From: Escherichia coli | GTDB taxonomy: Bacteria > Pseudomonadota > Gammaproteobacteria > Enterobacterales > Enterobacteriaceae | DNA: 64,000 nucleotides | Reading direction: 5' to 3' (one strand) | Assembly (NCBI RefSeq): GCF_045037415.1 | Contig: NZ_CP173438.1 | Part shown: positions 27,001-30,000 of the stretch, in pieces | Position numbering within the stretch: the stretch's first letter is position 1 | Layout of the letters: each line of letters begins with the position of its first letter | Made by a program: the position numbers

Positions 27001-30000
27001 GACCATATTAACGCAGCAAAAGCAGGCACCGCGCCCACATAACCAATCATCGACATTGACCAGTGCAGACTCACCTGATTACCTACCAACGCACCCGCGC
27101 CGATTCCAATATTAAATATCCCGGAGAATAGCGCCATCGCGACGTCGGTGGCATCTGGTGCCAGCGCCAGCACTTTAACCTGCATACCAAGCCCGATGAT
27201 CATCATCGCGATCCCCCAGAAAATACTCAGCACCCCGAGGTGTATTTCACTGTTCGCCGCAGGTAGCAGCAGTGCCAGGCACACCAGCAATAGCGCAATC
27301 GCTGTACTCACCAACGCAGACGCATACTGATTACCCAGTTTACCGAAAATCACGCTGCCAATAATGCCCGCACCACCGAGTAATAACAGTAATGCCGTGG
27401 CAAAGTTGGCGCTGAATCCCGCAATGTTTTGTACAAAAGGCTCGATATAGCTGTATGCCGTGTAATGGGCGGTGACAACCACCACAGTTAACAAATAAAT
27501 GCTCATCAATGCCGGGCGGCGGAACAATAGCGGGAGGCTTTTCAATGAACCGGAATGCTCACTGGGCAGCAAGGGAAGTAACTTAATCAGGCACAAAAGG
27601 GTAAGAAGCGCCCCGATACCAATCGCGAAGAAGGTCATTCGCCAGCCAAAATACTGCCCCACAATGCGCCCGAGAGGTAAACCTAATACCATTGCCAGTG
27701 CTGTACCGGTGGCAATTAAACTCAATGCCTGTGCTCGCTTCCCGGCCGGAGCCATACGGATCGCCAGAGACGCCGTAATCGACCAGAAAATCGCATGTGC
27801 AAAAGCCACACCAATGCGACTGATCACCAGAACGGTAAAACTCCACGATAAAAACGACAGTACGTGGCTGGCAATAAACACCACAAACAGGCAGATCAGT
27901 AATTTGCGGCGTTCAACCTGGCTGGTCATTAACATAAAAGGCAATGACATTAGCGCCACTACCCATGCATAAATTGTCAACATGATGCCGACCTGAGCGG
28001 TTTGCATGTGAAAACTATGCGCAATGTCAGAGAGCAGGCCAACAGGGACAAATTCGGTGGTATTGAAGATAAAGGCGGCGACTGCCAGCGTAACGACCCG
28101 TAGCCACGCTACTTTGCGGGAAACAGTGTTTGTTGTCATAACAGATTATCGGGTGAGTTGCGAAAAAGTGATGAAATGATCTTAAAACGGTTAATGATGT
28201 GAATACAATGCATTTGTGATCTGGATCGCATTTCCATCTCTCTGACGGTTGTTCTGTCACGCATCAGAGAGTTGTTAACATCACATTTTAATGACGATCA
28301 GGAAGGGGGCCTGTTCTTCTTTTACTTGAGGTGCAATATTACGAACGGGAAAATCATCAGGAAGAGATATGTAATTGCTGATGCTTACTGGCGTAACCAT
28401 ATTTGCCCCATATAGTCATAAGTCATTGGAACATCACTATATAGAGCATATTAGCCGCATGAACTATCAAAAATAGCTCATTGGTAACCCTGTTTTGCCG
28501 AGTCAGGCGCATCCAGCAGTTGAATAAATGCCTCAAGCGGACGCGTTTTCGCACCACGACGCCAGACCAGCCAGGTTGTTAACCAACGCCATTGCTCAGC
28601 TAACGGCCACGATTCAACCTGGTGATGCCCCGGCATACTTTCCAGCATAGAGCGTGGAATAAGCGCAATGCCTGCTCCTGCGACCACACAGGCCAACATC
28701 CCGTGATAAGACTCCATCTCGTGAATAGTTCCCGGAGCGGCACCGTCAGCATGAAACCAGCTTTCGAAGTGGCGACGATACGAACAATTGGCGCGGAAGG
28801 CATAAATGTTACTGCCATTCACCTGACTGGCACGGGTTACTGGCGCATGTCCTTGTGGCGTGACGATCATCAGTTCCTCGCGGTATACCGGTATCCCGTC
28901 GATGGCAGTATGGTTAATGGGTCCATCAATAAACGCCGCATTCAGTTTTCCCTCCAGCACACCTTCCAGCATAGTGCCGGAAGGGCCGGTGGAAAGTGAA
29001 AACTGAATTTTGGGATAACGACGGTTAAATTCCGCCAGCGTGGCCGGAATGCGCACTGCAGCGGTGCTTTCCAGCGATCCCAGAGAAAATAAACCTTGCG
29101 GCTCATCGCCAGCGACAACGCTCCGCGCTTCATCCACTAATGCGAGAATTTGTTGGCTATAGCGTAAAAAGTTATGCCCGGCAGGCGAGAGACGTAAACG
29201 CTGATTCTCGCGAATAAACAGATCAACCCCCAGTTCTGTTTCCAGCTGACGTAGACGGGTAGTGAGATTCGACGGCACGCGATGCACTTTTGCTGCAGCC
29301 TGGGTAATGCTGCCAGCTTCGGCAACCGCGTTGAACATCTCCAGTTGGGTCAGATCCATGGCATTCTCGATTCGTGAATAAGTGGCTTAATATTATTCAT
29401 TTTAAAGCAAGAGTAAATCTGCGTATCTTCATACCATGACTCATAAAGGAGATACCCCGATGACCATTACTCCGGCAACTCATGCAATTTCGATAAATCC
29501 TGCCACCGGTGAACAACTTTCTGTGCTGCCGTGGGCTGGTGTTGACGATATCGAAAACGCACTTCAGCTGGCGGCAGCAGGCTTTCGCGACTGGCGCGAG
29601 ACAAATATAGATTATCGTGCTGAAAAACTGCGTGATATCGGTAAGGCTCTGCGCGCCCGTAGCGAAGAAATGGCGCAAATGATCACCCGTGAAATGGGCA
29701 AACCAATCAACCAGGCGCGCGCTGAAGTGGCGAAATCGGCGAATTTGTGTGACTGGTATGCAGAACATGGTCCGGCAATGCTGAAGGCAGAACCTACGCT
29801 GGTGGAAAATCAGCAGGCGGTTATTGAGTATCGACCGTTGGGGACGATTCTGGCGATTATGCCGTGGAATTTTCCGTTATGGCAGGTGATGCGTGGCGCT
29901 GTTCCCATCATTCTTGCTGGTAACGGCTACTTACTTAAACATGCGCCGAATGTGATGGGCTGTGCACAGCTCGTTGCCCAGGTGTTTAAAGATGCGGGTA

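Follow-up and report, generated by a model that had tools for sequence, protein, structure and literature searches.

In Escherichia coli K-12, the gene yneK is located between the efflux transporter gene sotB (ydeA) and the regulator gene ptrR (yneJ). In the stretch of E. coli DNA analysed here (64,000 nucleotides from contig NZ_CP173438.1 of assembly GCF_045037415.1; hereafter the window), the same two genes are separated by a spacer of only 338 bp. The question raised by this locus is what the short spacer represents: a site that never carried yneK, the trace of a lost gene, or an error, and whether any part of it may still be in use. The spacer is very probably what an ancient deletion inside yneK left behind, an event which has become fixed in the E. 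coli lineage of the window, and we give this reading a probability of about 0.95.

The spacer between sotB and ptrR

Both genes bordering the spacer are encoded on the minus strand. The sotB gene (26949..28139; ydeA in RefSeq) encodes an L-arabinose/sugar efflux MFS transporter (NCBIfam NF002921, 666.5 bits), and its ATG occupies 28137-28139, read on that strand. The ptrR gene (28478..29359; also the RefSeq name) encodes a LysR-type regulator (NCBIfam NF047711 PtrR, 490.6 bits; cut-off, 400), and its TGA stop occupies 28478-28480, again read on the minus strand. The interval from the sotB start to the ptrR stop is 28140-28477. The initial annotation had described it as a 338-bp spacer devoid of ORFs; these coordinates are exact, and no ORF of at least 60 aa is present in 28140-28477, the four mechanical ORFs inside it being 33-47 aa long. 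By itself, a stretch of 338 bp without a long ORF is statistically unremarkable. The order given in that annotation for K-12, with yneK between yneJ/ptrR and sotB/ydeA, is the one annotated in the K-12 derivative used as our reference, the Keio strain JW5503, in which marC, ydeA, yneK (1116 bp, 371 aa), ptrR and sad follow one another. The distance from sotB to ptrR is 1342 bp in K-12, as compared to 338 bp in the window.

Anatomy of the yneK remnant

When the window was compared with K-12 by BLAST, two matching blocks were obtained, between which 1012 bp of K-12 and 9 bp of the window had no counterpart, and the breakpoints were then refined by multiple alignment (MAFFT). From this alignment, it is clear that the spacer retains both ends of yneK, on the minus strand. 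The 5′ remnant (28316..28400) corresponds to K-12 yneK nt 1-85, that is, an intact ATG and 28 codons plus 1 nt; its three nucleotide mismatches are all synonymous, and the 28 residues encoded, MVTPVSISNYISLPDDFPVRNIAPQVKE, are the same as in K-12 YneK. Next comes a 10-nt island between the deletions (28306..28315), which corresponds to K-12 yneK nt 1042-1051 with one mismatch (AACAGGCCCC on the coding, minus strand here versus AACAGGCCTC in K-12), and for which about 0.03 chance matches are expected in the deleted interval. The 3′ remnant (28288..28305) contains the final five sense codons and the TAA stop, equivalent to K-12 nt 1099-1116, with two mismatches over its 18 nt (CTTCCTGATCGTCATTAA here versus CTCCCTGAACGTCATTAA in K-12). 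The missing parts are one of 956 nt (nt 86-1041) and one of 47 nt (nt 1052-1098), in total 1003 of the 1116 nt. One base difference from K-12 is also found in the T-run upstream of sotB.

The 3′ remnant is out of frame relative to the 5′ remnant. The reading frame shifts after codon 28 and meets a stop 11 codons later, so that a full-length product is impossible; the residual 39-codon ORF (28281..28400, minus strand), one of the four mechanical ORFs mentioned above, consists of the 28 YneK residues followed by 11 frameshifted ones (EQAPFLIVIKM) and a TGA stop. Compared with K-12 yneK (b1527; NF033404, 'putative protein YneK'), the window copy is therefore found at the same position and in the same orientation, with the first 28 residues identical and the last 18 nt including the stop recognisable, yet it lacks nine tenths of the gene and its frame is broken.

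Homology searches gave the same picture. With K-12 YneK as the query against the whole window, tblastn matched residues 1-34 at 28400-28299 (E = 4.6e-12) and returned only chance-level matches outside this interval, meaning that no second yneK copy was detected in the window. The 39-aa ORF matched the NCBIfam YneK model NF033404 with 48.3 bits (E = 6.6e-13), which is above the cut-off of 40 but is a sign of fragment homology and not of gene intactness, since only positions 1-33 of the 371 in the model are aligned; a full-length match to all 371 positions was not obtained, whereas K-12 YneK covers 1-371 at 813.7 bits. The position of the remnant, between ptrR/yneJ and ydeA/sotB and on the same strand as both, also agrees with that of yneK, and what is found at this orthologous site, namely the 5′ 85 nt, the island and the 3′ 18 nt with the intervening sequence gone, is the structure of an internally deleted pseudogene. 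Thus, the initial annotation was right that a functional yneK is missing, but the gene-free spacer that it assumed is contradicted by the remnant detected both by tblastn and by NF033404, an outcome which that annotation had itself named as refuting. The remnant is probably a non-functional pseudogene.

Existing annotation and distribution of the short allele

The short allele is already known, in that public annotation marks it as a pseudogene. PGAP reports 'yneK, incomplete, missing C-terminus' in strains SK1144 (DAECLI1_RS11965), EC958 (EC958_RS29205), CFT073 (C_RS29250) and APEC E956, and the loci of SK1144, EC958 and CFT073 share the junction and a 102-bp annotated fragment. SK1144 is identical to the window over 27640-28980. 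The PGAP feature differs from the structure described above in covering the 5′ fragment only (window-equivalent 28299-28400), with no separate entry for the island and the 3′ end.

To describe its frequency, a 149-bp query centred on the junction was searched against 5426 complete E. coli genomes at a coverage of at least 80%. The junction allele is present in 1115 of them, about one fifth, including CFT073; in the remaining genomes, only one half of the query matches, since about 1 kb separates the halves there. The interior of K-12 yneK is covered by at least 80% in 4263 of the 5426 genomes and has zero match in 1124, and the two sets of counts are complementary. The difference in length from K-12 is real. 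The short allele is shared across a lineage and not special to this strain, and RefSeq had already annotated it.

Over the full length of 20000-40000, many ST131 genomes, among them EC958, JJ1886 and JJ1887, match the window at 100% identity. The spacer of CFT073 is also 338 bp long, with two mismatches to the window and an identical junction. Since CFT073, an ST73 strain, carries this identical junction, the short allele predates the split of the ST131 and ST73 lineages, both presumably of phylogroup B2. About 76 genomes contain the junction in a more divergent background, such as APEC E956 at 97.3% identity. In APEC E956, the same compound junction (extracted locus 1404-1747) is found beside the SotB protein of K-12 and another PtrR allele, of 291 aa, and its 85-nt 5′ remnant differs from that of the window by four substitutions, one of which changes an amino acid (Y10F), with the 39-codon ORF intact. 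This background suggests that the allele is older than one clade, or that it has been moved by homologous recombination; likewise, it suggests that recombination breakpoints lie in or near the locus, or that the short allele was itself spread by recombination. In practice, the loss marks a lineage, and the short allele is a convenient marker (ST131 and ST73 included), being otherwise ordinary.

Features of the lost gene

YneK, which is uncharacterised, occurs in no group other than Escherichia and its closest relatives. A Pfam search of YneK gave no family, the only hit being a sub-threshold one to DUF1140 (E = 0.16). Searches for a function returned nothing in PADLOC, only matches of E > 0.06 in PHROGs, and nothing in a sequence search of the PDB. 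The gene has a G+C content of 39.8%, as compared to 51-53% for its neighbours. Where it is kept, its dN/dS is 0.11-0.20, against 0.01-0.09 for sotB and ptrR, indicating that it is a real gene under purifying selection, with a weaker constraint than the neighbouring genes. A 31-kb contig (SMXE01000224.1) of the 'Caldithrix sp.' MAG CR04bin15 also encodes YneK, with 100% identity to the K-12 protein and with ptrR and sotB on either side; this contig is almost certainly E. coli contamination.

The gene appears dispensable. A Keio yneK knockout had no significant effect in one CAST-editing validation assay; the paper also notes the lack of Pfam and KEGG annotation for yneK and its occurrence mainly in strains of E. 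coli and Shigella (PMC12757027). Independent IS1 disruptions of yneK were found in other E. coli strains, 23CRST050 and BUCT2930. In 23CRST050, the one IS1 allele examined, only the 3′ 138 nt of yneK remain beside the IS1 element (extracted locus 2482-3324), so that the 3′ end and not the 5′ end has been kept. The yneK gene of the E. albertii type strain NBRC 107761 (extracted locus 3001-4116) carries an in-frame TAA at codon 86, which is either independent decay or a sequencing error. The IS1 alleles and this nonsense codon differ from the window allele in mechanism and lineage, but they too inactivate yneK at this locus, in support of dispensability, and the loss of YneK was presumably tolerated for this reason. 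The locus is one more case of decay in an uncharacterised AT-rich gene of Escherichia and close relatives, and the deletion explains why yneK, called uncharacterised, is listed among the variable genes in pan-genome association studies such as that of bovine adherence (PMC11540155).

Direction of the change

A short spacer could also arise in the opposite way, with the short form being ancestral and yneK having been inserted between sotB and ptrR in an ancestor of K-12 and of most other E. coli. The gene does have features typical of horizontally acquired genes, being AT-rich, without a Pfam family and confined to Escherichia and close relatives. An empty site, however, would not hold both ends of yneK, including its start and stop codons, as the short allele does, and this remnant indicates loss rather than gain independently of any outgroup. 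The outgroup points the same way. A scan of one genome per species recovered two loci, that of E. albertii NBRC 107761 and the 'Caldithrix' contig, and none from E. fergusonii or the cryptic clades, probably because the peptide patterns had to match exactly. E. albertii NBRC 107761 showed the same order of ptrR, yneK and sotB, with amino-acid identities of 91%, 68% and 94%, respectively, and with yneK at its full length of 1116 nt. Since the long form is found at the same position in this one outgroup species, it predates the split of E. coli and E. albertii, and the window allele is the derived one; any acquisition of yneK would have to precede that split. An insertion in the K-12 lineage is thus very improbable. 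Still more remote is an assembly or sequencing artefact, because the identical junction is found in 1115 independently assembled complete genomes, among them the reference strains EC958 and CFT073; we regard this explanation as practically negligible. The direction of the change is loss, and no observation speaks against a deletion.

As to how the deletion occurred, microhomology at the breakpoints is at most 2-3 nt, which is uninformative, and there is no sign of a repeat-mediated deletion. Because the junctions are without meaningful microhomology, we propose that illegitimate recombination, possibly in two steps, removed the interior of yneK. Such an event would have joined the 28 codons, with their start codon and upstream region, out of frame to the island and the last 18 nt, and would have left the upstream region of sotB and the 3′ end of ptrR untouched. 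The island suggests that there may have been two deletions, but it is short, and a single deletion with a filler of 9-10 nt may account for it instead.

Retained intergenic regions and possible residual function

The intergenic regions on both sides of yneK lie outside the deletion. The 77 bp between ptrR and yneK (28401..28477, minus strand) align from end to end with the K-12 and E. albertii sequences, and are where the promoter and ribosome-binding site of yneK would once have been. An NtrC/RpoN site has been reported in the K-12 yneJ-yneK spacer by genomic SELEX (PMC8743547). The 148 bp between yneK and sotB (28140..28287, minus strand) likewise align over their whole length with both genomes. 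This region contains an inverted repeat, CTCTCTGACG / CATCAGAGAG, with its arms at 28238-28247 and 28262-28271, a loop of 14 nt and a distance of about 100 bp to the start codon of sotB. K-12 and E. albertii share the arms, whereas the loop varies; the arms differ from those of K-12 at one base (plus strand, G to A), and this change would retain a G-U pair in the minus-strand RNA. The repeat fits a terminator for yneK or a hairpin in the sotB leader, although this is a single observation and no T-run is present; it could also be bound by a regulator. The hairpin forms in an RNA fold of the sotB-proximal 161 nt, with a z-score of −1.33 relative to shuffled sequences, which is not significant.

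Scans for other signals gave little. Over 28000-28600, the promoter scan found two weak sigma-70-like sites, no more than in shuffled sequences; one of them, TTCACA-16-GATCAT at 28203-28176 on the minus strand, has 9 of 12 matches. An intrinsic terminator with a T-run was not found between the remnant and sotB in a scan of the same interval, and an Rfam scan of the whole window gave nothing in 28140-28477.

It is conceivable that the remnant is still used, either because the 39-codon ORF makes a small protein or because the yneK upstream region drives or modulates sotB. The start codon and the upstream region are intact, the ORF is open both here and in APEC E956, a SELEX site is reported for the K-12 spacer (PMC8743547), and the scan detected no T-run terminator between the remnant and sotB. 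On the other hand, the conserved hairpin with its 10-bp stem still lies between the remnant and sotB, and the 11 C-terminal residues of the ORF are a frameshift product. The differences between the alleles are too few for a selection test, and they may predate the deletion or stem from recombination. We thus consider continued use of the remnant unlikely. A similarly low expectation applies to the idea that the deletion was non-neutral, either because the retained region upstream of yneK, brought to within about 260 bp of the start of sotB, would act as a new regulatory input, or through a 39-aa micro-protein. If this were true, B2 strains would couple the SotB sugar-efflux pump to a new regulatory input, or would translate a micro-protein derived from YneK. 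The deletion raises a new biological question only if sotB expression is altered by the remnant or by the shortening of the region upstream of sotB. Our preferred reading is still that of a decayed yneK left behind by the internal deletion.

Other observations in the window and related genomes

Several further features were noted in the course of these comparisons. The single Rfam match in the whole window is the Hfq-binding sRNA STnc560, full-length with 281.9 bits at 22218-22431 on the plus strand, adjoining mgtS/mgtT between dgcZ and ydeE. Nearby, in the dcp-dgcZ interval of EC958 (window ~20854-21062), PGAP annotates two small pseudogene fragments, of a 2-oxo-tetronate isomerase and a YdeI-family protein, both partial and also present in CFT073. 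K-12 presumably has ydeI and ydeJ between dcp and dgcZ, and these fragments would be another deletion scar.

Farther along the window, tam is placed directly beside hipB at 37305-37613, an arrangement also seen in CFT073. In K-12, tam and hipB are separated by the lsr autoinducer-2 operon and adjoining genes, and the window lineage appears to be without this block. CFT073 contains, between marB and eamA (extracted locus 26170-32346), a cluster encoding a 6-phospho-beta-glucosidase, a porin, PTS IIA/IIB/IIC components and a GntR regulator, which is absent from the window and from EC958. The hipA gene of CFT073 is annotated as partial.
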